A DNA stretch of 30,494 nt from a bacterium (GCA_021801885.1 JAKABL010000001.1:1-30494), one strand, 5' to 3'. Positions 1,075 through 27,159 are shown, counted from the stretch's first letter. A program made the numbers and translations. Notes: generated by a model from the letters alone, not told the origin.

Positions 1075-1227
1075 CCCCTGTCGCATCGTAACGTTATTCC
1101 ACCGTGATCCCCATAGTTCTCGTGCAACCTCGAATAATTTAAAAAAATCTGCGAAAGCCAGTCGAATATTAATAGCTTTTAAGTTGCAATTTGATGATAG
1201 CACGAAATCCATCCGGTCGTGCTGGTC

Positions 1228-1261
1228 GTCGGCTGTGGATAAACGCCCCGCTATGACATGC
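1228..1261. repeat. Left end (attL-like) of integrated element; imperfect inverted repeat of 12634-12664
   Basis: GTCGGC-tgtgga-TAAACGCCCC-gc-TATGAcATGC versus reverse complement of the right end GTCGGC-aaatc-TAAACGCCCC-TATGAgATGC. Confidence 0.6.
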
Positions 1262-1272
1262 TTTTAAAAAAG

Positions 1273-2217
1273 CTATTCTCCCCGCAAACTGCGATAGGCC
1301 TCTTCCCGATCCTTCCCAAAAAGCATCGTATACGGATACGAGCTCTCCACCCTGGCGTGGCCCATCATGCTCGAAATGACGAAATTGTTTGCTTTCTTTT
1401 TCGCCAGATCGCGGCCGAACAGGTGCCGGAAGGAATGAGGATTGATGATAGGCAGTCCCGCTCTGTTCGAGTATTTGCGGAATAGTTCGGAAACATAACC
1501 GACCTGCAACCTTCTTCCCTTCGCGGAATAGTTCGACGCGCTCCCGCCCGCCTTGATTCCGAAGAACACCGCCTTCGGCTCGTCGAGCTCCATCGTCGTG
1601 AGAAATTTCTCGCGGGTCGCAACCCACTTCTTGAGCTGTTCGTTTGCCTCGCGCCCCCAGAAGATCTCCCGATATGGCAGCTCGCCGCGCGACTTTTCCG
1701 TCTTGATCCGCGCCGACTTCCTACCAAGATCGATGTCGTCCATGTCGAGCGCGACGATCTCGCCGTTGCGCGCCCCGGTGTCATGGATGAGCATGAGGAT
1801 CGCCTTGTCGCGGACCGCATACGTAATCTCGCCGCACTTCCCCTCGTCCTTCACCGCCGCCAGCAACCGTTCATACTGCTCTTCGGTTGCCACCCGTGGG
1901 AACTTGAACACTTTTCTTGGTATCGGGATGAGATCCGGATCGAAGCCCACTTGGATGCGGCGGCGGAACATGTGCTCGAAGAACAGTTTGAGCGCAATCG
2001 CTTTTTTGATCCGCGTGTTGTCGTCGTACCCGAGCGACTGCACGACCCCCAGCCAGCTTTCACATTCTTCGAGCGTGATCGATTCCACTTCCCGATCAAC
2101 GTCCCGCATGTAGAACATGAAGTCCGAGAGGTGCATGAAATCCTGCGTAACCGTCCGCGACTTCCTCGTCTGGTGCCGGGAATTCAGATACAGGTTTATT
2201 GCATCGTTGAGTTTCAT
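1273..2217 (-). CDS. Tyrosine recombinase/integrase (XerC/D-like)
   Basis: RDKAILMLIHDTGARNGE (catalytic R), KTEK, HSFRH (HxxR), MMGHA and terminal Y (SSYPYT). ATG at 2217 preferred over GTG at 2247, which lies inside the upstream terminator hairpin. Confidence 0.93.
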   Translation of the reverse strand: MKLNDAINLYLNSRHQTRKSRTVTQDFMHLSDFMFYMRDVDREVESITLEECESWLGVVQSLGYDDNTRIKKAIALKLFFEHMFRRRIQVGFDPDLIPIPRKVFKFPRVATEEQYERLLAAVKDEGKCGEITYAVRDKAILMLIHDTGARNGEIVALDMDDIDLGRKSARIKTEKSRGELPYREIFWGREANEQLKKWVATREKFLTTMELDEPKAVFFGIKAGGSASNYSAKGRRLQVGYVSELFRKYSNRAGLPIINPHSFRHLFGRDLAKKKANNFVISSMMGHARVESSYPYTMLFGKDREEAYRSLRGE

Positions 2218-2235
2218 ATTTAATTTATTTTTAAC

Positions 2236-2446
2236 GCAAAAGCCCACCGATACGACTCAGTGGGCCTTGCGCGGAGACAATCCTTGCAGATTGCTCCAGG
2301 GCGTCATTCTACTCGAAAAACGCCGAAAATACGAGACCCCATTGGTCGTATCGCGCCTTGCGGCAGATCCCTTTCGGGACAATGGGTTTTATGCTGTTTT
2401 ATCGACCTTGCCGGACTATACGGCGGTTCGTTTCCGCCGTCCAGTT
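2236..2446 (-). ncRNA. Putative structured cis-regulatory leader RNA/attenuator of the integrase
   Basis: Several hairpins with GNRA loops (tccc-GAAA-ggga, gcc-GCAA-ggc, caatct-GCAA-ggattg), ending in gcccactga-gtcgta-tcggtgggc-TTTT just upstream of the int ATG; 2345-2353 is complementary to 2248-2256. Confidence 0.55.
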
Positions 2447-2584
2447 ATGTCATAGCTAAATTGTTTTTGAGGTAGGTTTTGTCAGTACGATTGTGAGTTA
2501 TGAACACTTTGGCATTTGATTCGACCTTGACGGCGGGGTTTAAAATGAAGGCGTGCTCGCCTGTTTAAGACGCCCTTCATTTTA

Positions 2585-2860
2585 ATGGTGAACTCAACGA
2601 CAACATGCAGCTATGCGAACCCCCTCGTTCTTACGAAGGGCGCTTTAAACCCCGCTTCGGGAAACGACAGCGGGGCGTTCCAATTCGGCAGCTCAACGTG
2701 CACCACGCTTTACGCGCAAAGCACCTCCACCAATCCCAGTTATTATAATGGGTTCACCTACGGCGAAATAGTTATTTCTGTGCTTCTTCTGTTGATAACT
2801 GTCGCGACACTCTATAGCTTCTTCTGGTTTAGTGTGAAAGGTGTGAAAATCAGGCAGTGA
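2585..2860 (+). CDS. Small membrane protein (Ser/Thr-rich N-terminus, C-terminal TM helix, basic tail); possibly a minor virion-like protein
   Basis: 91 aa ending ...GFTYGEIVISVLLLLITVATLYSFFWFSVKGVKIRQ. Confidence 0.7.
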   Translation: MVNSTTTCSYANPLVLTKGALNPASGNDSGAFQFGSSTCTTLYAQSTSTNPSYYNGFTYGEIVISVLLLLITVATLYSFFWFSVKGVKIRQ

Positions 2861-2975
2861 TTTTTCATATTTGCTTTAGAAATAATTTATGTATAAAAGC
2901 GTATAATGTTATGCACATGGAGCAATATGGCAACCACGCGGCTTTATGTGTTAAAATAACTGTATTGCGAGGCGC

Positions 2976-3004
2976 TTGATTTTCGGGCATTCTGATGGTA
3001 CAAT
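2976..3004 (+). promoter_or_regulatory. sigma70 promoter of the antitoxin-fic operon
   Basis: TTGATT-N17-TACAAT with an extended -10 TG. Confidence 0.7.
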
Positions 3005-3031
3005 AAGGTCTCGATCATTGGCACTAAAAAT

Positions 3032-3256
3032 ATGAAAAAGCGCGTCATTCCAAATATTGAGAACCAACTGAAGAAATTGGTTGAGTTGCAGTTGGAAGTG
3101 GAAAAATTGCCGCCGCTCACTCCTGTCGAAAAGGCGAAGTTCGAACAGTCGCTTGCGATCGATCAGCTCTATTATTCGAGCAAGCTCGAAGGGAGCGAGC
3201 TCACGACCAAAATGATCGATAAAGCGATTCATGGCAAGAAGCTTTCGGCGGCCTAA
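3032..3256 (+). CDS. Fic antitoxin (alpha-inh motif)
   Basis: 74 aa containing SSKLEG, matching (S/T)xxxE(G/N); overlaps the fic start by 26 nt. Confidence 0.75.
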   Translation: MKKRVIPNIENQLKKLVELQLEVEKLPPLTPVEKAKFEQSLAIDQLYYSSKLEGSELTTKMIDKAIHGKKLSAA

Positions 3257-3887
3257 GGACGACGAAGAACTTCAGGAATTGGAAGCCGCCGGGCTATGGC
3301 GTGCTCAAGCGCTCGCGAAAGAGATCGGCGAGAGCAGCGAAAAGATAACCCTCGAAATCATCTTGCGTATTCACAAGGTGTTTTTCGAGCACGCCAACCC
3401 GGACATTGCGGGAAGATTTCGCCGTAGCGGCGAAGATATAAAGAAGCTGAAATACATCGAGCCACCGCTCGGAACCGGCGTGCAAATGCGAATGTACGAG
3501 TTCTGGCGCGACTTCGACACTCGCCTTTCGCAAGTGCCACAACTTCCCAAGACCGCAGGCAAACGGGCATCCCAACATGCACTCGCAAAGCGTAATGATG
3601 CCGTGATAACCCTCGGAGCGTGGACGCAACACCAGATCGCCGCAATCCATCCGTTTTGCGAGGGCAACGGCCGTATGGCCCGCCTCCTTACCAACCTTAT
3701 TTTGTATCGCTTCAAGCTTCAGCCCACGGATATAAAATACCAAGGCGAAAACCGCGTCGCCTATCTCGAAGCACTTGGCGCGATCGATCAGCACGACGAT
3801 TATCGCCATCTGAAGCAATTAATCATTAAAGGGATGATGAGCTCGTATCGGCGTCTTGCGGAGACAAGAAAGCGAATGGCGAAATAG
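3231..3887 (+). CDS. Fic-domain protein (AMP-transferase toxin)
   Basis: Canonical motif HPFCEGNGRMAR; 218 aa. Confidence 0.92.
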   Translation: MARSFRRPKDDEELQELEAAGLWRAQALAKEIGESSEKITLEIILRIHKVFFEHANPDIAGRFRRSGEDIKKLKYIEPPLGTGVQMRMYEFWRDFDTRLSQVPQLPKTAGKRASQHALAKRNDAVITLGAWTQHQIAAIHPFCEGNGRMARLLTNLILYRFKLQPTDIKYQGENRVAYLEALGAIDQHDDYRHLKQLIIKGMMSSYRRLAETRKRMAK

Positions 3888-3951
3888 CTGTGTACCGGAC
3901 AATGTAAAGTATTGCCGCTATACTAAAACTGGGCGGCAAGCAAAAAATCCC

Positions 3952-5018
<1,067 letters not shown>

Positions 5019-5205
5019 GGATGGAAATGCGAACGACACCCTTGGCTCTGCGGGAGGGCGCATTCCGCGCGATCCCGCAGAGGAACGGATGATATTTTCC
5101 CTTTCGGGAAGGAAGAGGGGCAGTAGCCGTCTTGGCGCAGACATGCGCGCGATGCGCGCAGGGATCCGTGAATCCCCTGTTCGGGCCAATGCATTCGATG
5201 ATGAA
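5019..5205 (-). ncRNA. Structured spacer between TR and RT (3' part of DGR RNA)
   Basis: Stems 5046-5055/5073-5082 (10 bp perfect), 5097-5110 (GAAA loop on the sense strand) and 5144-5160. Confidence 0.6.
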
Positions 5206-5320
5206 TACTGGGCACAGCGGAATCCGATGTTGTTGTTCGTGTTGCCGGGAGTATTGTTCAGGTTGAGTGTCTCCACCCCCGCATTCGCGCCATTGTTCCA
5301 ATTGCCGCCGCGGATGAAAC
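5206..5320 (-). repeat. DGR template repeat (TR)
   Basis: 115-bp copy of 5804-5918 with 13 mismatches, all at TR adenines on the sense strand; rich in AAC/AAT codons; lies between avd and RT. Confidence 0.97.
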
Positions 5321-5380
5321 TCCACTGTGGTGCACCCCTGTCCCTGCCCGGCGATGCCGGGCATCTTCCATTCTACCGCA

Positions 5381-5731
5381 TCACGCCGCGTTCGGCTGGG
5401 GAAATCGCGCCATCCATCCCGCGAGCATCCGGCCGATCTCGTTCATGCGCTCCGCCGCGAAGCCGTATTGCCGCACACTCATGAACCGGAGGTCTTTCGC
5501 GAGGCGGACAAGCATGCGGAGTTCGTCGAGATCCGCGCTCGCGGCGGCGAGTAGGGTATGTTTCTCCCGCGCGGCGTTCGCGACGATGAACGCGTGGATG
5601 AGGTCGATGGTCTTATTCTCAATGCGCTGGCCGAGCACGAACCGCTGGCTCTTGGGGAATTTGTTCACGACGGGATGCAACCACAGCATGAAGTCGTAGG
5701 TCTTTTGGTAGATGGCAAGGTCGTCCAGCAT
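5381..5731 (-). CDS. avd: DGR accessory variability determinant (Avd-like four-helix bundle)
   Basis: 116 aa, LAIYQKTYDFMLWL...KFPKSQRFVLGQRIEN...LDELRMLVRLAKDL...EIGRMLAGW; sits directly upstream of TR. Confidence 0.92.
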   Translation of the reverse strand: MLDDLAIYQKTYDFMLWLHPVVNKFPKSQRFVLGQRIENKTIDLIHAFIVANAAREKHTLLAAASADLDELRMLVRLAKDLRFMSVRQYGFAAERMNEIGRMLAGWMARFPQPNAA

Positions 5732-5802
5732 GGCGGAAGGAGGCAGAGGCAGAAAGAAAAAATGCGAAGATAGATTGCAGATTTCAGATGGCTACGCGGC
5801 GG

Positions 5803-7326
5803 CTACCGGGCACAGCGGAATCCGACGCTGTTGTTCGTGCCGCCGGGAGTAAGGCTCAGGTTGAGTGTCTCCACCCCCGCATTCGCGCCATTGCCCCAAC
5901 CGCCGCCGCGGAGGAAACCATAGACGGTGGTATTGCCCGAGGTGCCGTCGGAATATATTTCGCCCATGCCTTGTGTAGAGCTCCATGCGTTGTTGAGAGG
6001 CCCCGCGGTCTGCTGAGTCATCGTGCCCCAGTTCGTGATCGCGGTATATTGGCGCCAGGTGAAGCCCGGGCTGCCGCCATACGGCTCGTTCTGTCCCTGG
6101 ATCGTGTCGCTCGTCCACTGCCAGAGGTTGCCCGCCATGTCCCAGACGATGCTGCCGTTCGAGAGCGTGAGGGTGCGGATCTGGGAATTCGCCGATCCCG
6201 TGCCGCCGCAGGAGGAAGGGCCGTCGGTGCCCACGCAGTTCTGGGAATCGCTTGTGGAAGGGAGGCTTGCGTTTGCGGGAATGTTGTCGTTGTGTCCCGA
6301 ATACACATAGTTCGTACCCACCGTGCCGCCGTACCAGTTTGATCCCTGCCCCTCCGCGTTCCAGGCGATGGTCTGCCACTCCGCGTTCGTCATGAGATGG
6401 GCGCCGATCGAAGCGCAGTAGCTCGCGGCCTGGGTCTGGGACACGTCCACGATGGGATAGCCGGTGGCGATCGAGGCGGGGGCATAGCCGTTCGCTTGGG
6501 AACAGTTGTTCGTATTCACACCCGCGCCCCCATTGTTGTAACCGTTCACGGCGGTGCCATCCAAAGGAGAGGTGAGGCCCACACCCGTCGTGCGGTTCAC
6601 GCATGACGCGTCGTACTTCATCACCATGAAATTGCCGGTACCGAAGGTGCTGTTGCCGGGGACGGGCACCCAGGCGCCCGTGAGGTTGGCGGCGGAGCCG
6701 ACCGTGAAGGCGAGAGGATTCTGCACGAGCATCGCCTGATATTTCTGGGATTCGGGGACGGCCGTGACGCGGAAGGTGGTGCCGAAGGATTCGTAGGTGT
6801 AGTAAAAGTTGCTTGAGGTGGAATTCACGGGATCGACGGGGAGGGAGCCGAAGGGGCTTCCAGCGCTAATGCTATTGAAATTGATCGGCAGCCAGCCGGT
6901 GGTCGAAGCGTTGCGATAGGTGCTTGATGCGGCGCAGTGGAAAGATCCGCCTGCGAGGAAATTGCCGCTCATAAGGGAGCAGTCCGTGCCTGCGGTCGAG
7001 GTGGCATTCGGATCGGGAATGGAAACGTAGGTGACGGATGAGGTGCCGAGGGAGAAATTGGAAGCGCCCCCTTGGTCAGTGGTATACAAATTGATCGCCG
7101 AGTTCAGGGTGGCAAGGTCGGAGAGGCGGTTCGCATCCCTCGATTGGGCGAGAAGCTGGGCGGGATTGAGGGTCAAGACGACGACCACCGCCAAAATGGC
7201 GATGATCGCGATCACGACGAGAAGCTCGATGAGGGTGAAGCCCTTATCGAGCATGGCCGCAGGTGGAATTACTCTCTCTCTCTCTCTCTCGGAGCGATTA
7301 TTCCGAACAAAAGCTGGGTTGCCCAT
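5803..7326 (-). CDS. DGR target: type IV pilin-like N-terminus fused to a C-terminal C-type-lectin (FGE-sulfatase-like) variable domain; alternative start at 7254
   Basis: Class III signal KG|FTLIELLVVIAIIAIL...; CLec/FGE motifs HLMTNAEWQ, WDMAGNLWQWT and RGGGW...GFRC; VR at the C-terminus. Confidence 0.9.
   Translation of the reverse strand: MGNPAFVRNNRSERERERVIPPAAMLDKGFTLIELLVVIAIIAILAVVVVLTLNPAQLLAQSRDANRLSDLATLNSAINLYTTDQGGASNFSLGTSSVTYVSIPDPNATSTAGTDCSLMSGNFLAGGSFHCAASSTYRNASTTGWLPINFNSISAGSPFGSLPVDPVNSTSSNFYYTYESFGTTFRVTAVPESQKYQAMLVQNPLAFTVGSAANLTGAWVPVPGNSTFGTGNFMVMKYDASCVNRTTGVGLTSPLDGTAVNGYNNGGAGVNTNNCSQANGYAPASIATGYPIVDVSQTQAASYCASIGAHLMTNAEWQTIAWNAEGQGSNWYGGTVGTNYVYSGHNDNIPANASLPSTSDSQNCVGTDGPSSCGGTGSANSQIRTLTLSNGSIVWDMAGNLWQWTSDTIQGQNEPYGGSPGFTWRQYTAITNWGTMTQQTAGPLNNAWSSTQGMGEIYSDGTSGNTTVYGFLRGGGWGNGANAGVETLNLSLTPGGTNNSVGFRCAR
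5804..5918 (-). repeat. DGR variable repeat (VR) at the 3' end of the target gene
   Basis: Encodes FLRGGGWGNGANAGVETLNLSLTPGGTNNSVGFRCAR, differing from TR only at adenine positions. Confidence 0.97.
7272..7290. repeat. (GA)9G microsatellite in the leader of the DGR target gene
   Basis: ctctctctctctctctctc at 7272-7290, between ATG 7326 and the pilin cleavage site; currently in frame. Confidence 0.95.
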
Positions 7327-7332
7327 AGGAAT

Positions 7333-7341
7333 ATCATACCA
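7333..7341 (-). promoter_or_regulatory. Extended -10 promoter for the pilin-avd-TR-RT transcript
   Basis: TGGTATGAT, 6 nt upstream of ATG 7326. Confidence 0.55.
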
Positions 7342-7367
7342 TATACCGATGAAATCCCTGTGTAAAA

Positions 7368-8357
7368 CTAAGATTCCGCCGCCTTTATTCCCCGCATCAC
7401 CTCCGCTGCCACTTGCGGCACGATGGCGTTCCCAAGCGCCTTTATCCGCTCGATCCGGTGTCCTTTCGCGGTTAGCTCGCGTCCGTCCAGGCGGGCGGAA
7501 AGCCCATCATCCACTCCACAAAGAGCGGTTGCAGCCTCAAGCCAGCCGATCCCTGAATCGTCTCCCCAAAATTTGATTTGCCCCGATCCGTAGAGCCAGC
7601 CCTGCTGTCCTGCGCCTTGGGCGTGGGCAAAAGTTCGGGCAGGCGCGGCAGGATCTGCCCCAGGCGCGCGCCGTGCCGCACCCCTTTCGCTTTCGATCGG
7701 CGGAAAAACACCCCGTTCTTGAACTGCACAGTTTTCGTGTATTCCCCTCCCGTCGTCTCGCTCGCGACGGGCGTCGGCGCCATATTGGGCAACGATCCAG
7801 ACCCTGTCCCTCCGGTGCGGGGCTTGGACGGCGCAAGCTGGAATAATAAACGGCTGGACGGCGTAGCCTTCGTTTTCCAAGTCAGAGAGCACCTGGTCGA
7901 GCGCCAGGCGGACGATCCCAGCAACATTCTCGCCAATGATCCAACGGGGTCGCGTCTCTTGTATGACCCGTAGCATGTGAGGCCAGAGATAACGGTCATC
8001 CGCACTGCCTCGACGCTTCCCGGCGACACTGAAAGGCTGGCACGGGAATCCGCCCGTGAGGAGATCGAGCGCAAGGCGTCGGGCAGGTTCATGCTGTGCT
8101 TGCTTCCCTTTTTCGTCTGCGAGCTTTTGAGGTTCGGCGTGAACGTGTCCGCCGCGGTCGGCGTCGGCAAGAAGTCGCTCGACCGATAGCTCCCTGATGT
8201 CTCCATAGATTTTCGCATGAGGAAAGTTTTTCTTTAATATCGCCTGACAAAATTCATTGTTGTCGCAAAAGCCGACGTTCTCATACTCGTCGCCCCACGT
8301 CCACTGCGCCGCGAGGGCGAACCCGCCAATGCCGGAAAAAAGATCAAGGTGTCGCAT
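7368..8357 (-). CDS. C5-cytosine DNA methyltransferase, large (alpha) polypeptide
   Basis: Motif I FSGIGG, IV GFPCQ, VI ENV, VIII PHRRDRVW and X KALGNAIVPQV; motif IX not seen in this frame. Confidence 0.93.
   Translation of the reverse strand: MRHLDLFSGIGGFALAAQWTWGDEYENVGFCDNNEFCQAILKKNFPHAKIYGDIRELSVERLLADADRGGHVHAEPQKLADEKGKQAQHEPARRLALDLLTGGFPCQPFSVAGKRRGSADDRYLWPHMLRVIQETRPRWIIGENVAGIVRLALDQVLSDLENEGYAVQPFIIPACAVQAPHRRDRVWIVAQYGADARRERDDGRGIHENCAVQERGVFPPIESERGAARRAPGADPAAPARTFAHAQGAGQQGWLYGSGQIKFWGDDSGIGWLEAATALCGVDDGLSARLDGRELTAKGHRIERIKALGNAIVPQVAAEVMRGIKAAES
7472..8218 (-). CDS. Overlapping alternative-frame ORF, putative beta polypeptide of the methyltransferase (true start uncertain)
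   Basis: 248 codons open in a shifted frame wholly inside the MTase gene; three PTP repeats (LPTPTAAD, APTPVASE, LPTPKAQD); ends in motif IX-like LQPLFVEWMMGFPPAWT. Confidence 0.72.
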   Translation of the reverse strand: MRKSMETSGSYRSSDFLPTPTAADTFTPNLKSSQTKKGSKHSMNLPDALRSISSRADSRASLSVSPGSVEAVRMTVISGLTCYGSYKRRDPVGSLARMLLGSSAWRSTRCSLTWKTKATPSSRLLFQLAPSKPRTGGTGSGSLPNMAPTPVASETTGGEYTKTVQFKNGVFFRRSKAKGVRHGARLGQILPRLPELLPTPKAQDSRAGSTDRGKSNFGETIQGSAGLRLQPLFVEWMMGFPPAWTDAS

Positions 8358-8366
8358 GTCATTGGA

Positions 8367-8630
8367 TCAGTTCACGCCAGGGATCTTGTTATAGATCCAT
8401 TTCACGGCCTTGTACCCGAAGTAGCCCGCCTCGACCGATACGACGATGCCGAAGACAATGAAAAGCGTCGATATGGGCAGGAAGAGGTCGAAAAGGGCGA
8501 GATAATTGCCCGCCTGGGAAAGCGTGCCCGTGAGGTTCACCGAAAGCGACGCCACGGGAAGCAGCGTAAGCGGGGCGGTAACGAGCCCCAGGAGGTAGAT
8601 GAGGATCTTAAAAAGCCAGTAGACGATCAT
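8367..8630 (-). CDS. Inovirus pVI-like minor coat protein
   Basis: 87 aa, very hydrophobic, ends YKAVKWIYNKIPGVN; ATGA overlap with the pIII-like gene. Confidence 0.75.
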   Translation of the reverse strand: MIVYWLFKILIYLLGLVTAPLTLLPVASLSVNLTGTLSQAGNYLALFDLFLPISTLFIVFGIVVSVEAGYFGYKAVKWIYNKIPGVN

Positions 8631-9955
8631 AGCGTGATGTGCTGGATGAAGCGGAAGATCCAAAAGCCGAGCGCAAGGATGAGCATGAAGGAGATTCCCG
8701 CCTTCAGGGGATCGAAGACGGACGAAAGCGCCGCGTAGGTGGTCGTCGTCATCAAGGTGCTCGTGTTCACGCCTTCCTGGAAATTCTGGAATGCGGACAC
8801 GATGATGCCCGCGTAGCCGAAGGGAACGCGCGTCGAAAGCTGGCTCCACGTGCCATTGAAGGAATCAAAAAGATCAGCCTGCTCGGATGTGTTCGGAATG
8901 AACAAATTGCAGCCCGCTTCTTCGAGATTGCCGACCGGATCGGTAAGGAAGCTCGACGTGGTGAATTGGCAGTTCGCCGCGGTGGATGACGTTTCCCCTC
9001 CCCCGAAGTTGAACATACCGTTCGGGAAGGGTGCGACGGCTGGAGCGGTGTTGCTGATCGTGAAGCTGATGACCGATCCCGTGATGTCGAAGTTCGTCGA
9101 GGTGTTCGCCACTTCGAGGTCGGCGTACCAGGTGCTGGACGGCGGCCCCTGGGGCGTGATGAATTGGTACGTCTGCGGGATCTTGAGCTCGGTATCCGTT
9201 CCGGGCGGTAGGTCGGTGTACGTCGTGGACGCCTCGAGCGTGAGGTTGCCCGGACCCGTGCCGAAGTGGACGGTTACGACCCCGCTCTGGGTGCTCGTCG
9301 AATTGTTCGAGAGGTAAAAATCCCAGTTCGGAAAAGCGCCGATCACCGCGCCGTCGAACGGCTGGAGGAAGACCGGCTGCACGGGCTCCTGGATTGAGTT
9401 CACGTAGTACGTCTCCCAATACTGGCTGCCATCCGTCGGCAGGGATTCGCTCACGCCGCAGGTGTAGCCGTTGTAGTAGAAAAAAGTGAGATAAATGGGC
9501 GTCGCTTGCGTGATGCTCACCGTCGGCACGAAGGAGTTGGTGTTCGCGTTCCATACCGTGCTCATCGGGCCGTACGTGTTGCCGTACGGCGCCTGGCTCG
9601 CGCCCGCATACGTGCTGCCGAACCCACCCGCGCACCCGCCCCCGGTGCCCACGCCGCCGTGCGTGAGAACGTGGCCGCCGGCCGACCATCCGGAATACGG
9701 GCCGTTGTAGCTGAGCTCCGGATCGGTGCTTGTCCCGTTGATCGAGACCATGATGCCGCCCGGCAGGTCGTACCCGCCAAAGCCGAGCTGGACCTTGTGC
9801 CAGTCGATCACAAGGTTGCCGTTCTGGTCGAGGTAGATCGAATCGGGCTGCACGTAGGTCGAGGGGTCGGTGATGCTGTATGCCAACGCGTCATGCGTCG
9901 CAAATATGGAAACGCCAAGCAAGAGCACGAACGCGGCGGCAAAGTATTTCTTCAT
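8627..9955 (-). CDS. Inovirus pIII-like adsorption protein
   Basis: 442 aa; signal peptide (ALA|Y), Gly/Ser/Thr-rich beta-like body, C-terminal TM anchor; positioned between coat genes and the pVI-like gene. Confidence 0.72.
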   Translation of the reverse strand: MKKYFAAAFVLLLGVSIFATHDALAYSITDPSTYVQPDSIYLDQNGNLVIDWHKVQLGFGGYDLPGGIMVSINGTSTDPELSYNGPYSGWSAGGHVLTHGGVGTGGGCAGGFGSTYAGASQAPYGNTYGPMSTVWNANTNSFVPTVSITQATPIYLTFFYYNGYTCGVSESLPTDGSQYWETYYVNSIQEPVQPVFLQPFDGAVIGAFPNWDFYLSNNSTSTQSGVVTVHFGTGPGNLTLEASTTYTDLPPGTDTELKIPQTYQFITPQGPPSSTWYADLEVANTSTNFDITGSVISFTISNTAPAVAPFPNGMFNFGGGETSSTAANCQFTTSSFLTDPVGNLEEAGCNLFIPNTSEQADLFDSFNGTWSQLSTRVPFGYAGIIVSAFQNFQEGVNTSTLMTTTTYAALSSVFDPLKAGISFMLILALGFWIFRFIQHITL

Positions 9956-9983
9956 GGTGGTGGGCGGGGATATTCCATGTCCG

Positions 9984-10232
9984 TTATTGGCCGCGGTGGC
10001 GGATGGCGCCGATCACGAATTCGACGACGACGAGGGCGAGCAGCACGCCGATGATGAGCTCCATGTACGCACTCAAGGAACCGAGCAATGCGGTCGCCTG
10101 GGCGAGGATCTGCGCCGTGAGATCAGACGGAAGCTGGATGGTGTCGGTGGCCGTCTGCGCGAACGCGAAGGCGGGCGCGAGCGCCAGGGTGCCGAGTATT
10201 GAAATGGCGATGGTGATTCTTTTCATGCGCAT
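9984..10232 (-). CDS. Inovirus major-coat (pVIII)-like protein 2
   Basis: 82 aa; signal peptide ending AFA|Q, amphipathic helix, TM helix, basic end RHRGQ. Confidence 0.7.
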   Translation of the reverse strand: MRMKRITIAISILGTLALAPAFAFAQTATDTIQLPSDLTAQILAQATALLGSLSAYMELIIGVLLALVVVEFVIGAIRHRGQ

Positions 10233-10302
10233 ACGCGAAGGGGTGTCCTCACTCGATACATCCCCTCGCCTATACGCCCTAAGCGGGGCGGCAAAGCTGC
10301 GC

Positions 10303-10575
10303 TTAGTGGACGCGGGCCCGGGACTTCGGAAGGAGGCCGATGACCTGCTTCGCGAAGTAGAAGACGAGCGGGACGGCGGCGGCGATGATGACGAGGCCGA
10401 GGATGCCCGGATCGGTGAAGATGTTGGACACCGAAGCCAGGAGATCCGTTACCGTCGAAGACGGCACCGTAAGCGTTCCCGCGGGGATCGTCTGCGCGTG
10501 AGCGGCGGCGACGGCAATTGTGCCGAGGACCGCGGCGCCAGCGCCCGAGACCCACATGGAGATCTTCTTGATCAT
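10303..10575 (-). CDS. Inovirus major-coat (pVIII)-like protein 1
   Basis: 90 aa from ATG 10575; signal peptide ending AHA|Q, amphipathic and TM helices, basic tail LLPKSRARVH. Confidence 0.75.
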   Translation of the reverse strand: MIKKISMWVSGAGAAVLGTIAVAAAHAQTIPAGTLTVPSSTVTDLLASVSNIFTDPGILGLVIIAAAVPLVFYFAKQVIGLLPKSRARVH

Positions 10576-10616
10576 GGTGGATGCGATATTGATTTGTATG
10601 CGACCTTTGTTCTCAT
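10572..10616 (-). CDS. 14-aa mini-ORF (MRTKVAYKSISHPP) linking two genes by ATGA overlaps
   Basis: Its start overlaps the stop at 10613-10615 and its stop overlaps the coat ATG at 10573-10575. Confidence 0.4.
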   Translation of the reverse strand: MRTKVAYKSISHPP

Positions 10617-10738
10617 AGCCAGGTATCAATGAAAGTGAAGAAAAGCGCGTGGGCGGTTGTCATGCCGAACAGGACGAGAATCCATGAGGGATTCACCACT
10701 TGAGACCACGCGAGGAAAATTTGATCGAGCGGGGGCAT
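10613..10738 (-). CDS. Small hydrophobic protein, 41 aa (pIX-like position)
   Basis: MPPLDQIFLAWSQVVNPSWILVLFGMTTAHALFFTFIDTWL; starts 1 nt after the previous stop. Confidence 0.6.
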   Translation of the reverse strand: MPPLDQIFLAWSQVVNPSWILVLFGMTTAHALFFTFIDTWL

Positions 10739-10739
10739 A

Positions 10740-10883
10740 TCAGGGGTTCCGGATGACGACCTTGATCCACTTGCTGCCCGTAATGCCGAGGAAGATCCCG
10801 ACCACACCGTCCACGAGCGCCACGATGAAGAAATCGAGGGCGAACGTAACGAGGATGAGGGCGAAGAAATACTGGAAGGTCAT
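10740..10883 (-). CDS. Small hydrophobic protein, 47 aa (pVII-like position)
   Basis: MTFQYFFALILVTFALDFFIVALVDGVVGIFLGITGSKWIKVVIRNP; ATGA-coupled to the upstream gene. Confidence 0.65.
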   Translation of the reverse strand: MTFQYFFALILVTFALDFFIVALVDGVVGIFLGITGSKWIKVVIRNP

Positions 10884-11053
10884 GCAGGTCGGAAATGATC
10901 GTTATCGTCGTCGAGCGGCTCGTAATGGTAATCGTCGTCATTGTCGCGTTTCCCCTTGTCGGCATTTTCGGGAACCGACCAAATGAGGGCGACGAGGACG
11001 AGGATCATCGAGAGGCCGCCTGCCCAAAATCCGTTGAAAAAATACCAGTTCAT
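10880..11053 (-). CDS. Small membrane protein, 57 aa, acidic C-terminus
   Basis: MNWYFFNGFWAGGLSMILVLVALIWSVPENADKGKRDNDDDYHYEPLDDDNDHFRPA; ATGA overlaps at both ends. Confidence 0.65.
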   Translation of the reverse strand: MNWYFFNGFWAGGLSMILVLVALIWSVPENADKGKRDNDDDYHYEPLDDDNDHFRPA

Positions 11054-11193
11054 TTTTTGAATATCTTTTGCCACCAGGACTTTTTCGGCGGGATGTAGAA
11101 TCCCAACGGACGGGGCGGCCGCCTGATCTGCGTCATGCGCTTCGCGAGCCAGTAGAGGATGATGAATCCGATGATGGTGAGAATGGGTGTCAT
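11050..11193 (-). CDS. Small membrane protein, 47 aa, basic C-terminus
   Basis: MTPILTIIGFIILYWLAKRMTQIRRPPRPLGFYIPPKKSWWQKIFKK. Confidence 0.65.
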   Translation of the reverse strand: MTPILTIIGFIILYWLAKRMTQIRRPPRPLGFYIPPKKSWWQKIFKK

Positions 11194-11195
11194 GG

Positions 11196-11348
11196 CTAAT
11201 CGTCGTCGTATTCTTCGTCGTCGAAATCATCTTCCTCAAGATCGTCTTCGACATCATCCAATTCGCGTTCGGCGTCGTGGCACGCGCAGTCGCATATCCT
11301 GCCGCCGTCGCACCAGTAGCTGTCATCGCAAATCGAACAGGCGATCAT
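11196..11348 (-). CDS. Cys-rich, highly acidic 50-aa protein
   Basis: MIACSICDDSYWCDGGRICDCACHDAERELDDVEDDLEEDDFDDEEYDDD; 6 Cys and 23 Asp/Glu. Confidence 0.65.
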   Translation of the reverse strand: MIACSICDDSYWCDGGRICDCACHDAERELDDVEDDLEEDDFDDEEYDDD

Positions 11349-11394
11349 GGTTTTATTCTGGAGCGGCAGTCTCAAGATTTCCGCGGGGCCAAAG

Positions 11395-11584
11395 TGTGCA
11401 TAACTGCCGCCACAAAACTTGTCCACACTTTGGCAGTGGAAATAAAAAGCGAAAGGGGCAAATATATCATTAAGCGAAACAAGGAAATGAAGCGGAAACC
11501 CAAGAAAAAACACGGAGGGGGCAAATCTTAATTAATTAAGAAATTAATTAATATATTTGCCCCTATGCACTGCAAGGGTATAAT
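11395..11584. promoter_or_regulatory. Divergent control region with repeated operator-like boxes and the HEPN gene promoter
   Basis: 14-bp inverted repeat 11454-11467/11551-11564; GGGGCAAAT three times; palindrome CTTAATTAATTAAG at 11527-11540; TTGCCC-N16-TATAAT at 11557-11584; DnaA-box-like 9-mers at 11395-11403 and 11419-11427. Confidence 0.6.
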
Positions 11585-11591
11585 GGTGGAC

Positions 11592-12188
11592 ATGAGTGAT
11601 ACGGCGAAAAAATTTTTTGAGGAGCACAAGCTAGAGCTTGGTGAAGTTGGAGAAATAATCACTGTTTTCAACAGGATTGAAAATATTGTAGTAATGCTTA
11701 TAAGTAATGCTTTCGCCTCAGTTTACGGACAGGAGCGAATAATTTTGATAAACGACACATTGAACGATGGCAATATTTTTGAAACTTTCGAGCAAAAAAT
11801 AAATTTTCTCGAAAAAGTCATTTCGAGAGTTGCTATGATTGCCACTAAAAGAAGCGAGTCGTTTGATGAAAAAAAGTACCTTGCCGTTTGTAAATCCATA
11901 AGAAATATTCAAAAATATAGAAATAAAATTGCTCATATATCCCTTGCCTTCTCTCCTGAAGGTAAGGCGGTAATTTTTAAACGCAAAAAAGATAAAGAAT
12001 TATTGACCACAAAAAATGGCAGCTTCAACAAAGAAGAGCTCGATCTAAAAGATATAAAGGAAAAAATCTGGGCGGTTTATCAGGAGGCGGAAAACGTGCT
12101 GATTAAAGAAGGTTCTACCCAAATGCTTAATATCCTTCTGAAAGAGGAATTTCAAAACCTCAATCGCATCAAGAAATCTAAAACTTGA
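11592..12188 (+). CDS. HEPN-domain protein (putative RNase toxin/defence factor)
   Basis: RNKIAH (Rx4H) motif; N-terminal helix GEIITVFNRIE; markedly AT-rich. ATG 11592 chosen because the upstream ATGs overlap the promoter. Confidence 0.7.
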   Translation: MSDTAKKFFEEHKLELGEVGEIITVFNRIENIVVMLISNAFASVYGQERIILINDTLNDGNIFETFEQKINFLEKVISRVAMIATKRSESFDEKKYLAVCKSIRNIQKYRNKIAHISLAFSPEGKAVIFKRKKDKELLTTKNGSFNKEELDLKDIKEKIWAVYQEAENVLIKEGSTQMLNILLKEEFQNLNRIKKSKT

Positions 12189-12489
12189 TCCGATAATACG
12201 TCGCTTTGCGGAAAAACCCGCGGCCTTTCTCTGGATCTTTGAACGTCGTAGTCCACTGCTCCAAAAATCCTTTTTTGACGAGCGTGTTTTTGGCGCACCG
12301 GGCAGCCTTGTAGGTGATCCCGAGGCAGTTCGCGATCTTCACGAGCTCGACCATTTTCGGCACGCGGATGTTCCCAATCTCCTCCACGAACGCCTGATAC
12401 ACCCTTGTCTGCCTATCGGTGAGCTGGCGCAAGAGAACGGACCGCGTAGCCGCGCTCGATACTGCGCCGAGACGGGTAAATCCTTCCAT
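12178..12489 (-). CDS. Winged helix-turn-helix DNA-binding protein
   Basis: LTDRQTRVYQAF...IANCLGITYKAARCAKNTLVKKGFLEQ pattern. Confidence 0.7.
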   Translation of the reverse strand: MEGFTRLGAVSSAATRSVLLRQLTDRQTRVYQAFVEEIGNIRVPKMVELVKIANCLGITYKAARCAKNTLVKKGFLEQWTTTFKDPEKGRGFFRKATYYRIKF

Positions 12490-12637
12490 GATTTTTCGGG
12501 GTTATCGCCCGCGAGCAATCCCGACAAAGAACCGCGACCATTTCGTCTTGTCGGCCGAAGTGATAGATCTTGCGGCAGCGGCGGTCGCACCGAACGCACG
12601 TTTCCCAGCGGGAAAACCGCTTTCTTTCTTTTTGCAT
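12413..12637 (-). CDS. Small putative zinc-ribbon protein
   Basis: 74 aa with CVRC...CRDC; overlaps the wHTH ORF by 77 nt. Confidence 0.45.
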   Translation of the reverse strand: MQKERKRFSRWETCVRCDRRCRKIYHFGRQDEMVAVLCRDCSRAITPKNHGRIYPSRRSIERGYAVRSLAPAHR

Positions 12638-12664
12638 CTCATAGGGGCGTTTAGATTTGCCGAC
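12634..12664. repeat. Right end (attR-like) of integrated element
   Basis: GCATCTCATA-GGGGCGTTTA-gattt-GCCGAC, an inverted copy of 1228-1261, located just past the rplK terminator. Confidence 0.6.
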
Positions 12665-12679
12665 CTTTTGGATGCAACG

Positions 12680-12707
12680 AAAAAGCCGATCAATTACGAT
12701 CGGCTTT
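12680..12707 (-). terminator. Intrinsic terminator of rplK
   Basis: AAAGCCGATC-aattac-GATCGGCTTT, with a T-run on the minus strand. Confidence 0.8.
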
Positions 12708-12768
12708 CGCCAGGGCGCCCAATGATAATTTTGGGCGAACCCTGATTTTATTGATCTTTTAAACTATT

Positions 12769-13194
12769 CTACGAGGTAACCTCAATTCCCATGTTCTTCG
12801 CCGTGCCGGCGATGATCTTCTCAGCGGCATTAAGATCGTCGGTGTTGAGGTCGACAAGCTTCTTTTCGGCGATTGCGCGGATATCCGCTTTGCTCACCTT
12901 GCCAACTTTGCTCTTGAGAGAATCAGCGGCACCCTTCTCGATGCCAGCGGCCTTCTTGAGAAGCGCGGAAGCGGGAGAGGTTTTAAGTACGAATGAAAAC
13001 GAACGATCCTCGTAGATGGTGATCTCCGCAGGCACCACATCGCCCTTCATGTCCTTCGTGGCGTCGTTGAACTGCTTGCAGAAATCCTGAATATTGATGC
13101 CCTGAGGGCCGAGCGCGGTACCCACCGGAGGCGCAGGATTCGCACCGCCCGCGGGGAGCTGGAGCTTCAGAACGGTTTTGATCTTCTTGGCCAT
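12769..13194 (-). CDS. rplK: 50S ribosomal protein L11
   Basis: [20 protein letters not shown]...[10 protein letters not shown]...[10 protein letters not shown]. Confidence 0.98.
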
Positions 13195-14431: not shown

Positions 14432-17400
14432 TTAGCTGCCCGCCATGGCGGCTTCCTCTTCTTCCTCCTCCATTTCGGCCTCGTGGAGAATGGCGTCAGA
14501 GACGATCTCTTGCTTTCCCGCAGGAATAAGGCGCCCAATAATGACGTTTTCCTTGAGGCCGCGGAGCTTGTCGATCTTACCTTCAATGGCGGCCTTCACG
14601 AGCACGCGCGACGTGTCCTGGAAGGATGCCGCCGAAAGGAACGATTCCGCGGAAAGGGCGATGCGGGTGATGCCGAGGAGCGTCTCCTCTGATTTCGCAG
14701 GCTTGCCGCCCTGCTTCTTGATCTCGCGGTTCACTTCGAGGAAGCGGGACTTTTCCACGACCTCGCCCATCACGAAATCAGGAGCATCACCGCCGTCCGT
14801 GATCTTCACGCGGGAGAACATCTGGCGCACGATCATTTCGATGTGCTTGTTGTTGATGGACGCGCCTTCCGACGCATAGATCTTCTGCACTTCGTTCACG
14901 ATATAGCGGCTCGCTTCCTTCATGCCCCTGTGGGCATAGAGCTCATGGATATCGAGATTGCCTTCCGAAAGGCGATCGCCTTTCTTCACCGTGTCGCCCG
15001 CCTGCACAAAGAGGACCGTGCCGCGCGGAACGCTGACATCCGTCGCTTTGCCCTTCTTCGTCTCGGGAATGAAGCGGACCACCTTGAGCGTGCCGCGCTC
15101 TTCGATCTTGTCCACCGTGCCGTCGAACGGCGCGAGGATGGCGCGCCCTTTCGGCGCGCGGGTCTCGAAGATTTCTTCCACGCGCGGCAGACCGTGGGTG
15201 ATGTCGGCGCCGGCAACGCCTCCCTGGTGGAACGTACGCATGGTGAGCTGGGTGCCCGGCTCGCCGATGGATTGCGCGGCGAGTACGCCGACGGCGGTAC
15301 CGAGGGCGGCCGGCTTATTGCTCGAAAGGTCGTACCCGTAACATTTCATGCAGATCCCATAGAAGGTCTTGCAGGTGATCGGCGAACGAACGACGACATG
15401 ATCGATCTTTTCGGCCGCTTCGATCGCCTCCGCGGTCTCCTGGTCGATGGTCTCGCCCGCATGCACGAGGATCTTGTTGCCCACTTTCACGTCATCGAGT
15501 GCCGTGCGCGAGAAAAGGCGGGATGCAAAGCTCTGATTGAACTCCTTGCCGTCGGCACGCGCGATCTCGATGCCTTCCTTCGTATGGCAGTCCTCTTCGC
15601 GGATGGTAAGGTCCTGGGCCACATCGACGAGACGGCGAGTGAGATATCCTGCCTGCGCGGTCTTGAGCGCGGTGTCAGTGGTACCTTTGCGCGCCGCGTG
15701 GGTCATAATGAAATACTCGAGAATGGAAAGCCCTTCCTTGAACGAAGACTTGATCGGAAGTTCGATCGTTTCGCCCTTCGGATTCTGCACGAGACCCTTC
15801 ATACCCATCATCTGGATCGGCTGGGACCAGGATCCGCGGGAGCCTGAATTGACGATCTGATAGATCGGGTTGTCTTCGGGGAAGATGTCCGCGATGAGCT
15901 TCGCAAGGTCGTTCTTCACCTTCTCCCATACGCTGATCACGCGGCTGCGGCGCTCGACCGGCGTAAGAAGGCCTTCGTCGTATTGCTGATGGATGAGCGC
16001 GACCTCGTTGTCCGCCTTTTCGATCATGTCTTTCTTCTGCGTCGGCACGAGGAGGTCCGCCATGGCCCAGGTGATACCGGAGATGGTCGCCGTATCGTAG
16101 CCCAGACTCTTCACGCGATCAATGACATCCCGCGCGGCATCCATGCCCTTCACGGCAAACACACGACCAAGGAGCGCATTGAGCTTCTTCTTGGTGACGA
16201 GCTCGTTCACATAGGGAATGGTCCCGTTGAGCGCCTTATTGAAGATGAGGCGACCGGCCGTGGTGGGTTCGTCCATACCGAGAACCTTGATCGGCGTATG
16301 AAGCTTGATATGGCCGAAATGATACGCGAGCATGACCTCGTCGTAATCCGCGAAATGCTTGACGTCGGCGTTCTCCGGAAGCGTGTCCATCCGGGTGATG
16401 TAGTAGCTGCCGAGCGCGATGTCGTTCCACGGGCCCGGTACGAGGTCTCCCGTCGCAGGCTTCAAAAGGTTCTTGCCTGCGGACATGATCTCGCGCGCCT
16501 CCTCCTGGGCTGCCACGGAAAGCGGGAGGTGGACGGCCATCTGGTCGCCGTCGAAGTCCGCGTTGAACGCAGCGCACACGAGCGGCGGAAGCTTGATGGC
16601 AAGGCCTTCGACGAGCTGCGGACGGAACGCCTGCACCGAAAGGCGGTGGAGCGTCGGCGCGCGGTTCAGAAGCACGTACTTGTCCTTGATGATCTCTTCG
16701 AGCACGGCGAGGACTTCCGGCGTGTGCTCTTCCATGAAGCGGGATGCGGAGCGCATGTTGTGCGCCATGCCGCGCTTGATGATCTCGCTGATGACGAAAG
16801 GACGGAAGAGCTCGAGGCCCATGCGCTTCGGAATACCCATCTCGTCGATCTTGAGCTTCGGACCGACCACGATGACCGAGCGGCCGGAATAGTCCACGCG
16901 CTTGCCGAGGAGGTTCTGGCGGAAGCGTCCCTGTTTGCCCTTCAACATGTCGGCAAGCGAACGGAGCGGACGGCGCTGTGCGGACATCTGCTGCGTGCCG
17001 AACCGCGCAGAGTTGTCGATGAGCGCGTCAACGGCCTCCTGGAGCATGCGCTTTTCGTTGCGCACGATGACATCCGGGGCTTTGATCTCGAGAAGCTTCT
17101 TCAGGCGGTTGTTGCGGTTGATGACGCGGCGATAGAGATCGTTGAGATCGGAGGTTGCGAAGCGGCCTCCGTCGAGGGCCACCATCGGACGAAGGTCCGG
17201 AGGAAGCACCGGGAGCACGTTCATGACCATCCATTCGGGACGCTGCCCATTGCGCACCATCGCCTTGAACATCTTGAGGCGGCGAAGAAGCTTCGACTGC
17301 GCCATGGGATCGCGCGCGCCTTCGAGCTCTTTCTCGATCGCGGCGACCTCTTTCTTGAGGTCCATCTTCTGGAGGATCGACTGCACCGCCTCTGCGCCGC

Positions 17401-20400: not shown

Positions 20401-21187
20401 CGTAGCGATCGGCGCGTTCGAACATCGCCGCAATAAGGTTGCGCGCGGTCTCCGCGTTCGCGGGATCGCCCGGACGGAGGCGGCGGTAGATCTCGACGTA
20501 CGATTCATCGGCATCCTTCGCGACATCCTTCTTAAGGGTCGCATCGATGTATTTGATGAGGCCGGTATCCGCGCCTTCGAAGGCCTTCTTGATGTCGTCG
20601 GTCGTCATGCCGAAGATGCGCAAAAGGTCCGTCACCGGAACCTTCCGATGGCGGTCGATCTTCACGCCGATATCGCCGTTCGCATCGGTCTCGAACTCGA
20701 GCCATGCGCCGCGGTTCGGGATGATCTTCGCGCCGAAAAGCTGATGGCCGCGATACGGCACTGCGGTAAAGTACACGCCCGGTGAACGGACGAGCTGCGA
20801 AACAACGACGCGCTCCACGCCGTTGATGATGAACGTACCCCGCGCGGTCATGATCGGGAAATCCCCGAAATACACTTCCTGCTTCTGTTCCCTCCCCGTG
20901 CGGTTGTTCACGAGGCGCAATGTGCAACGAAGCGGGGCCTCGTAGGTGGCTTCCTTATAGCGCGCGGTCACTTCGTCATACTTCGGCTCGTCAAAACGAT
21001 AGTCCGAAAAATAAAGCGCAAATTCCTTCCCCGTATGGTCAAGGATCGGAGAAATCTCCTCGAGGAGCTCATTGAGGCCTTTTTTGAGGAACCATTCATA
21101 GGACTTCAGCTGCGCCTCGTTGAGATTGAGGGGCGAAATGAGGGGTTTTGATTTTGAGAAGTCCTTTGTGGAAGTGAATTTTGCCAT
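14432..21187 (-). CDS. rpoBC: Fused DNA-directed RNA polymerase beta/beta' subunit
   Basis: Single 2251-aa ORF with RpoB motifs (SQFMDQ...[38 protein letters not shown]) continuing into RpoC ([32 protein letters not shown]). Confidence 0.97.
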   Translation of the reverse strand: [2251 protein letters not shown]

Positions 21188-26960: not shown

Positions 26961-27159
26961 TTCACTGACTTCATTGAGGAGGCGAATGCATTGCACTCGC
27001 CAAAAGATATTCCTGTGAACCGAAAGGTCCGCGGATAAAAGTGGTGAAGCGGGCTGGGATTGAACCAGCGACCTTCGCATAGTTTTGCGACGCTCTCCCC
27101 ACTGAGCTACCGCCTCACGCACGTTCGAGGAAATGATTCTCCTCAATGAAGTCAGCGAA
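26961..27159 (-). other. Intervening sequence in 23S helix 45
   Basis: ~200 nt replacing the short H45 hairpin; closed by a perfect 17-bp stem 26965-26981/27139-27155. Confidence 0.88.
27042..27116 (-). ncRNA. tRNA-like element inside the 23S IVS (G3:U70, A73, CCA; 6-nt non-canonical anticodon loop)
   Basis: GAGGCGG TA GCTC AGTGGGGA GAGC G TCGCA AAACTA TGCGA AGGTC GCTGG TTCAATC CCAGC CCGCTTC A CCA folds into a full cloverleaf. Confidence 0.85.

Follow-up and report, generated by a model that had tools for sequence, protein, structure and literature searches.

The stretch of DNA analysed here, hereafter the window, is a whole 30.5-kb contig (30,494 nucleotides, nt; GCA_021801885.1 JAKABL010000001.1:1-30494) from the 652-kb, 97%-complete genome of an ultra-small bacterium of the candidate phyla radiation (CPR), a parcubacterium whose related records are labelled Candidatus Parcubacteria/Paceibacterota. 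From left to right it carries gatB, an integrase gene, the other genes of the element studied here up to a winged helix-turn-helix (wHTH) gene, and then rplK, ssb and rpsF (Table 1). In what follows G000 denotes the genome of the window, other G labels the genomes compared with it, and L labels related loci or contigs. Within the same-genus set of 23 genomes (G000 and 22 others), in which insertions were compared by DNA search, gatB and rplK are adjacent and separated by 145-730 bp in G008, G021, G006, G013, G019 and others, and the same interval holds the element in G000, G002, G003 and G017. Alignment with the empty sites places the element at ~1140-12795 (11.65 kb), with both ends inside the rplK 3' end: the codons that originally closed this gene, and its terminator, are now found at ~1050-1140, by the integrase gene, with the old terminator (~1050-1080) adjoining the displaced 3' end, and the crossover maps to an imperfect ~13-bp core near 12795. 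Besides the empty sites, the PF00589 recombinase and this duplication of the target-gene 3' end, the distribution of the element is patchy, its pIII-like gene being present in 3 of the 22 other genomes of the genus, with two copies in G017, and a 42%-identical relative (L024) has a tandem pair of different elements at this site. Therefore, the segment is a genuine mobile insertion; its layout recurs in six independent assemblies. An earlier reading of the window made from the sequence alone (the sequence-only reading) had proposed an integrase-bearing insertion, to be checked against empty sites in related genomes, and this holds, although the extent it gave (1240-12653) has to be corrected at both ends. 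Positions 923 and 12716 share a 12-bp direct repeat, which was also considered as attachment site and rejected, because the empty-site alignment puts the junctions in rplK. The rplK 3' end is present once more, in a more degenerate form, at ~1010-1040, beyond the 1105-1140 copy and near the integrase gene, and the two successive degenerate ends may have been left behind by more than one integration event.

Table 1. Features of the integrated element and of its junctions with rplK (positions in the window).
Feature	Position	Strand	Evidence or remarks
Displaced original rplK 3' end (attL side)	1105-1140	-	Alignment with empty sites of G008, G021, G019
Tyrosine integrase	1273-2247	-	PF00589, E 1.4e-24; 84-96% identical in G017, G003 at same junction
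orf91, 91-amino-acid (aa) tail-anchored membrane protein, core	2585-2860	+	Transmembrane (TM) residues 62-80; phmmer E 1e-42 to 1e-51, 7 related loci
Fic/DOC, cargo, two frames split at ~3231-3256	3032-3887	+	PF02661; PADLOC PDC-S04 7.8e-19, SoFic 1e-14
Diversity-generating retroelement (DGR) reverse transcriptase (RT), two frames joined at (AG)21 tract 4586-4627	3952-5276	-	RVT_1 on both halves
DGR template repeat (TR)	5206-5320	-	89% identical to VR
Avd accessory protein	5381-5731	-	PF22296 bAvd, 4e-28
Variable repeat (VR) within target gene	5804-5918	-	Pairs with TR
DGR target, 483 aa: type IV pilin N-terminus and FGE-sulfatase/C-type-lectin-fold	5803-7254	-	PF07963 (N_methyl), PF03781
C5 DNA methyltransferase (MTase)	7368-8357	-	PF00145, 1.7e-37
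pVI-like, 87 aa, about three hydrophobic segments	8367-8630	-	Gene call, TM prediction; dN/dS 0.06-0.19
pIII-like, 442 aa, signal peptide and C-terminal anchor	8627-9955	-	AlphaFold2 (AF2) model, profile matches
Coat-like B: Sec signal, ~56-aa mature helix, basic C-terminus	9984-10232	-	Hydropathy/signal-peptide layout, alignment
Coat-like A: Sec signal, ~63-aa mature protein, basic tail	10303-10575	-	Hydropathy/signal-peptide layout, alignment
o41, tiny TM peptide gene	10613-10738	-	TM prediction
o47a, tiny TM peptide gene	10740-10883	-	TM prediction
o57, tiny TM peptide gene	10880-11053	-	TM prediction
o47b, tiny TM peptide gene	11050-11193	-	TM prediction
Cys-rich (zinc-ribbon-like) protein, acidic tail	11196-11513	-	C-terminal half conserved in 9 loci
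Low-GC 207-aa open reading frame (ORF), cargo hot spot 1	11565-12188	+	GC 0.41; absent from relatives
wHTH, 103-aa winged-helix (HTH_36/MarR-like), core	12178-12489	-	Atlas score 0.95 to HTH_36 clusters
Element-supplied replacement rplK 3' end (attR side)	12769-12800	-	Empty-site alignment

The membrane-protein block in the interior of the element is organised like the genomes of Inoviridae/Tubulavirales (Ff, Pf, CTXphi). As judged by hydropathy and signal-peptide layout, a one-strand, translationally coupled run of short (30-90 aa) single-TM proteins, among them coat-like proteins predicted to be Sec-processed and ending in basic C-termini, is followed by a large adsorption-type protein with signal peptide and C-terminal anchor and then by a small multi-TM protein, and the whole is integrated as a prophage would be. 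The four tiny peptides (o41, o47a, o57 and o47b; 41-57 aa) are translationally coupled and each of them is kept in 8 of 8 related loci. In the AF2 model of the pIII-like protein (pLDDT 65), two beta-sandwich domains precede a disordered Gly/Ser linker, after which comes a helical C-domain that ends in a TM helix. Ratios of nonsynonymous to synonymous substitutions (dN/dS) against two relatives are 0.04-0.29 for the genes of the pIII-like, pVI-like and both coat-like proteins, the wHTH and three of the tiny peptides (o57 was left out of the computation), which indicates that the structural-like genes are functional and under purifying selection. Identity between the coat-like proteins is 72-87% (72-85% for coat-like B) in elements in which the pIII-like proteins share only ~43%; this is the divergence pattern of a conserved shell combined with a fast-evolving putative receptor binder, the C-domain of which is conserved.

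The connection of this block with filamentous phages comes from its relatives. Hidden Markov models (HMMs) of the pIII-like, pVI-like, wHTH and coat-like families match three contigs, L074, L076 and L075, with E values of 1e-31 to 4e-6 overall. The ends of L074 (5,871 nt) overlap exactly over 28 nt, giving a 5,843-nt circle, and those of L076 (7,094 nt) overlap over 30 nt; these overlaps are those expected of circles from an assembly at k=31, and both contigs are thus taken as circular. Homologues of the pIII-like protein are encoded by L074 (E 1.5e-31), L076 (1.1e-27) and L075 (5.8e-19), those of the pVI-like protein by the two circles, which bear Zot (7.6e-17 and 9.4e-16, respectively), and those of the wHTH protein adjoin the ATPase gene of the same circles (3.7e-19 and 1.8e-14). 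Both circles also encode coat-like homologues and the ATPase itself, a P-loop protein of 169-174 aa. This ~170-aa protein passes the Pfam Zot cut-off by a narrow margin, Zot is matched by 18 of the 25 members of its family (best E 4.6e-8), and its 143 homologues are found almost only on 5-8-kb contigs. On L075, a 17.4-kb contig, the same pIII/pVI pair is followed by the mini-ATPase, a PF23343 REP_ORF2-G2P protein and an integrase with restriction-modification (RM) cargo. By these profile matches the block of the window is homologous to a block of elements that carry filamentous-phage hallmark enzymes, and a filamentous-phage ancestry is supported because the homologues reside on Zot- and Rep-bearing contigs. 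This link is new here, and we found no paper on pI-less filamentous-phage-like islands in CPR bacteria. The nearest ESM Atlas cluster of the pIII-like protein is also viral (Hofneiviricota, score 0.85), a lead only, as it stems from a language-model search. Within the 400 genomes of the phylum and 300 of the order that were sampled, the pIII-like profile had no match outside its own genus; a tblastn search of 50,697 GenBank phage records gave no match and an IMG/VR scan for the pIII-like protein no relative.

CPR-associated inoviruses have been catalogued (Roux et al. 2019, PMC6813254). In a metagenome-assembled genome of the same class, the contig L039 (G148:C14, 7,410 nt, GC 0.49) encodes the same peptide at both ends, together with an HUH Rep, an 80-aa coat, a 447-aa pIII, a 92-aa pVI and a 360-aa Zot, and appears to be a complete conventional inovirus. 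It was tried as a relative of the element and rejected, since the family HMMs show no similarity.

Unlike Inoviridae/Tubulavirales, the studied element and its close relatives have neither a pI/Zot-type ATPase nor a rolling-circle initiator (pII/G2P, HUH or Rep_trans). A motif scan of the real ORFs at 1100-12800 disclosed no Walker A or HUH motif, Rep families were not matched by any ORF of the element, PF23343 is absent from G000, and Zot (PF05707) has no match in G000, G002, G003, G004, G011 and G017. The mini-Zot ATPase profile returned nothing convincing from the 23 genomes of the genus, with a single match of 15.7 bits. The absence of pI and Rep noticed in the sequence-only reading is therefore confirmed, and the helper encoding pI that it suggested seeking elsewhere in the host genome did not emerge from either ATPase profile in G000. 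The pI ATPase is the single universal inovirus marker (PMC6813254), and the element falls outside the inoviruses because this marker is missing. In two other genomes of the genus, L081 (G020:C22) and L082 (G008:C18) encode a 243-245-aa REP_ORF2-G2P-type protein, with a large serine recombinase directly after it and structural genes lacking in the neighbourhood; these are Rep-only integrated elements of the same host genus, unrelated to the one studied.

Comparison of ~15 loci separates a conserved core, comprising the wHTH, the Cys-rich peptide, the four tiny TM peptides, coat-like A (sometimes with a ~200-aa paralogue) and B, the pIII-like and pVI-like proteins, orf91, which always adjoins the integrase, the integrase itself and usually the C5 MTase, from cargo that is confined to two hot spots, one between the wHTH and Cys-rich genes and the other between the MTase gene and orf91. 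In the window the cargo consists of the DGR, the Fic gene and the 207-aa ORF; in relatives it includes restriction systems of Tsp45I, AlwI, MvaI and NgoFVII type, HepT/MNT toxin-antitoxin (TA) pairs, AbiEii, SMC-like ATPases, LexA-like proteins, P-type metal ATPases and Bro-N. G003 carries DGR RT and Avd in hot spot 1, where the window has the 207-aa ORF, and G004 a 90%-identical DGR cassette next to a 60-codon stub of the MTase 3' end, with no structural block. The DGR is thus a passenger and the MTase part of the core. The 9-nt distance from the pVI-like gene to the MTase start is as had been pointed out, and the MTase gene follows the pVI-like gene also in G002, G003, G017, L024, L027, L043, L044 and L063. 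The proposals attached to this arrangement fared worse: recent replacement of gene I by the MTase is not supported, the MTase being core in nearly all relatives, and neither is the DGR as the purpose of the element, this cassette being one of many interchangeable cargos besides RM, TA, AbiE, Fic and metal ATPases. Otherwise the gene content and order of that reading stand as described, except that it omitted the split Fic gene, the 207-aa ORF, the wHTH and Cys-rich genes and orf91. A second copy in G017 (L032 / L007) lies at a different chromosomal site and, instead of the MTase, has Bro-N, Transposase_mut, ParB_N and a serine recombinase.

P4-like elements and phage-inducible chromosomal islands (PICI-type) combine an integrase at the 3' end of a conserved gene with a fixed core and hot spots filled with RM, TA and abortive infection (Abi) systems. 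The studied element resembles them in its site-specific integrase at a gene 3' end, its fixed core and its defence-loaded hot spots, whereas its core is a filamentous-phage-like membrane block and not a replication module with capsid-redirecting genes.

Some individual genes deserve further comment. The Fic gene is read as overlapping frames of 74 aa and 218 aa, with an identical split in the independent assembly L018, and its predicted product resembles the defence protein SoFic. Neither the Cys-rich protein nor the 207-aa ORF has a family match. The MTase gene shows a raised dN/dS (0.36-0.39) with low dS, a pattern consistent with overlapping coding. An alternative frame at 7472-8218 has 248 open codons and higher GC at third codon positions, and is also open in G002; its product has no Pfam match.

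The DGR comprises RT, Avd and a TR/VR pair whose mismatches inside the repeat all fall at TR adenines; the VR occupies the lectin-fold C-terminus of the target, and the RT frame is broken. The frame is lost in the same phase in each of the three RT copies, with (AG)21 in the window and (AG)12 in L018 and G004; G004 has (AG)12 and (AG)14 tracts. An (AG)9 tract (7272-7289) lies ~18 nt upstream of the target gene, and it and the RT tract are the only (AG)n tracts of at least 6 units in the 652-kb genome; these tracts may serve slipped-strand switching of mutagenesis. For display of the target the host encodes PilB/PilT-type ATPases and a prepilin peptidase. CPR 'clade 2' DGRs have been treated as cellular (Roux et al. 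2021, PMC8144416). The cassette of the window is like them in its RT, Avd and adenine-only TR/VR changes, its lectin-fold C-terminus and its occurrence in Patescibacteria (PMC8144416), but unlike them it resides on a mobile element, has a pilin N-terminus on its target and an RT broken by (AG)n.

Taken together, the element clearly derives from a virus of the filamentous-phage kind and probably works like one. The explanation that we favour, and hold to be reasonably likely, is that of an ~11.65-kb integrative element descended from small circular Tubulavirales-like viruses of CPR bacteria, which spreads with the aid of a helper and otherwise persists as a chromosomal island with cargo. On this best reading the integrase-bearing lineage would have lost motor and Rep, and would spread only together with an ATPase-encoding relative. 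The tyrosine integrase has placed the element at the rplK 3' end, with a new gene end and terminator supplied by the element; the excised form would be packaged and extruded only if a related ATPase circle in the same cell provided the motor, and perhaps also replication, and without such a helper the element would stay in the chromosome. It can be speculated that the MTase protects the DNA of the element on arrival in a new host, and that the cargo pays for its upkeep.

Several observations weigh against a helper-dependent phage derivative. The structural-like ORFs have nothing significant in Pfam, PHROGs or PADLOC, the coat-like proteins reaching only sub-significant PHROG matches to major coat and Cep families; PDB sequence profiles gave chance matches only for the pIII-like and both coat-like families, and Foldseek comparison of the pIII-like model with PDB and BFVD retrieved generic Ig/FN3 folds only, with no pIII N1/N2 or C-domain. 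Hence of the filamentous-phage-like assignment made in the sequence-only reading, the homology of the structural block to L074, L076 and L075 stands, but a significant match to described inovirus families does not exist, and the HMM searches of the ORFs, which turned up no divergent pI or Rep, gave no inovirus pIII, pVI or pVIII family match either. The circular form of the studied lineage is missing among 27 metagenome loci, all of them integrated or partial, and the genomes of the genus yielded no helper in a search that is blind to unbinned small circles. The Zot-bearing circles are without assigned hosts, and elements of the G002 type, of up to ~23 kb with metal pumps, look like islands rather than phage genomes. 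Finally, RS1 and TLCphi of Vibrio cholerae are likewise integrated, filamentous-phage-derived, partial in their gene set and in need of a helper filamentous phage, but, as known satellites do, they retain genes for replication and regulation and take coat and assembly proteins from the helper, whereas the studied element is the reverse, keeping the coat block without motor and Rep. Other departures from Inoviridae/Tubulavirales are the C5 MTase in the core, cargo of up to ~15 kb, and the ATPase of the circular relatives, which is only ~170 aa long and has no TM domain.

Among the alternatives, the one that survives best is an autonomous virus or transmissible element without an ATPase of its own, which would use host Sec/YidC with FtsK or the type IV pilus motor, or bud off in membrane particles, its wHTH protein recruiting host replication. 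In its favour, purifying selection acts on all of the block in many pI-less elements, the occurrence of tandem and multiple copies points to arrival more than once, and the wHTH protein weakly resembles HTH_36 and Phage_rep_O. Moreover, PilB/PilT are present in the host, and a ~4.3-kb relative (P0099 type) is an apparent circle encoding the membrane block only. However, the circularity of this enzyme-less contig was read from circularly permuted gene tables and not from DNA, no gene but the ATPase is universal among inoviruses (PMC6813254), relatives of the same family do encode it, and the membrane topology of the coat-like proteins is opposite to that of pilins; use of host pilus machinery, one of the options raised from the sequence, was not borne out. 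That the pI-less lineage and the ~4.3-kb circles are self-sufficient, as filamentous or pleomorphic virus-like agents that encode neither ATPase nor replication protein for their particles and draw entirely on the machinery of an ultra-small host, we regard as unlikely; if it were so, no DNA virus-like replicator known in bacteria would be more reduced.

We are more doubtful still about a decayed prophage kept as a defence and adaptation island with no particle transfer, whose membrane proteins would serve superinfection exclusion of related phages or form a surface structure. Its cargo of mostly RM, TA, AbiE, SoFic-like Fic and DGR genes would suit such a role, every informative contig shows the integrated state, and decay does occur, as in G004, where the DGR cassette and MTase stub have outlived the structural block. 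Yet ten co-linear, translationally coupled small genes, all conserved, exceed what exclusion needs, the adhesin N-domains diverge fast while the coats remain 73-87% identical, as in transmissible viruses, and the element is patchy within one genus and occurs in tandem copies. Domestication of a prophage for supplying an adhesin, another of the earlier suggestions, is likewise improbable. That the segment is an ordinary surface-protein operon of the chromosome, or arose as an artefact of assembly, for which it could be said that no database family names any structural-like ORF, is very hard to credit given the empty sites, integrase, attachment-site duplication and patchiness, the recurrence in six independent assemblies and the homologues on Zot-bearing circles.

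Beyond the element, three features of the contig may be recorded. A 2.8-kb contig of the same assembly (G000:C61:2043-2829) matches positions 1-787 of the window at 98% identity, and this overlap in gatB indicates strain heterogeneity or redundant assembly. A single ORF of 2251 aa (14432-21187) contains RpoB (Rpb2) and RpoC (Rpb1) Pfam domains, the same fusion being present in L043 (2249 aa), and a tRNA-like gene, for which ARAGORN gave no anticodon, lies at 27042-27116.

Filamentous phages are found by screens for the pI ATPase, and a conserved, mobile lineage without pI, such as that of the helper-dependent element proposed here, is invisible to them. The family is large, with 1100 cluster representatives matching the pIII-like profile, and links three states: mini-Zot circles, seemingly enzyme-free circles, and integrase islands with defence or DGR cargo. 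At least some of the 'cellular' DGRs of CPR bacteria travel on such mobile elements. The family therefore offers a tractable case of the passage from virus to helper- or host-dependent island in bacteria with genomes of ~0.7 Mb.

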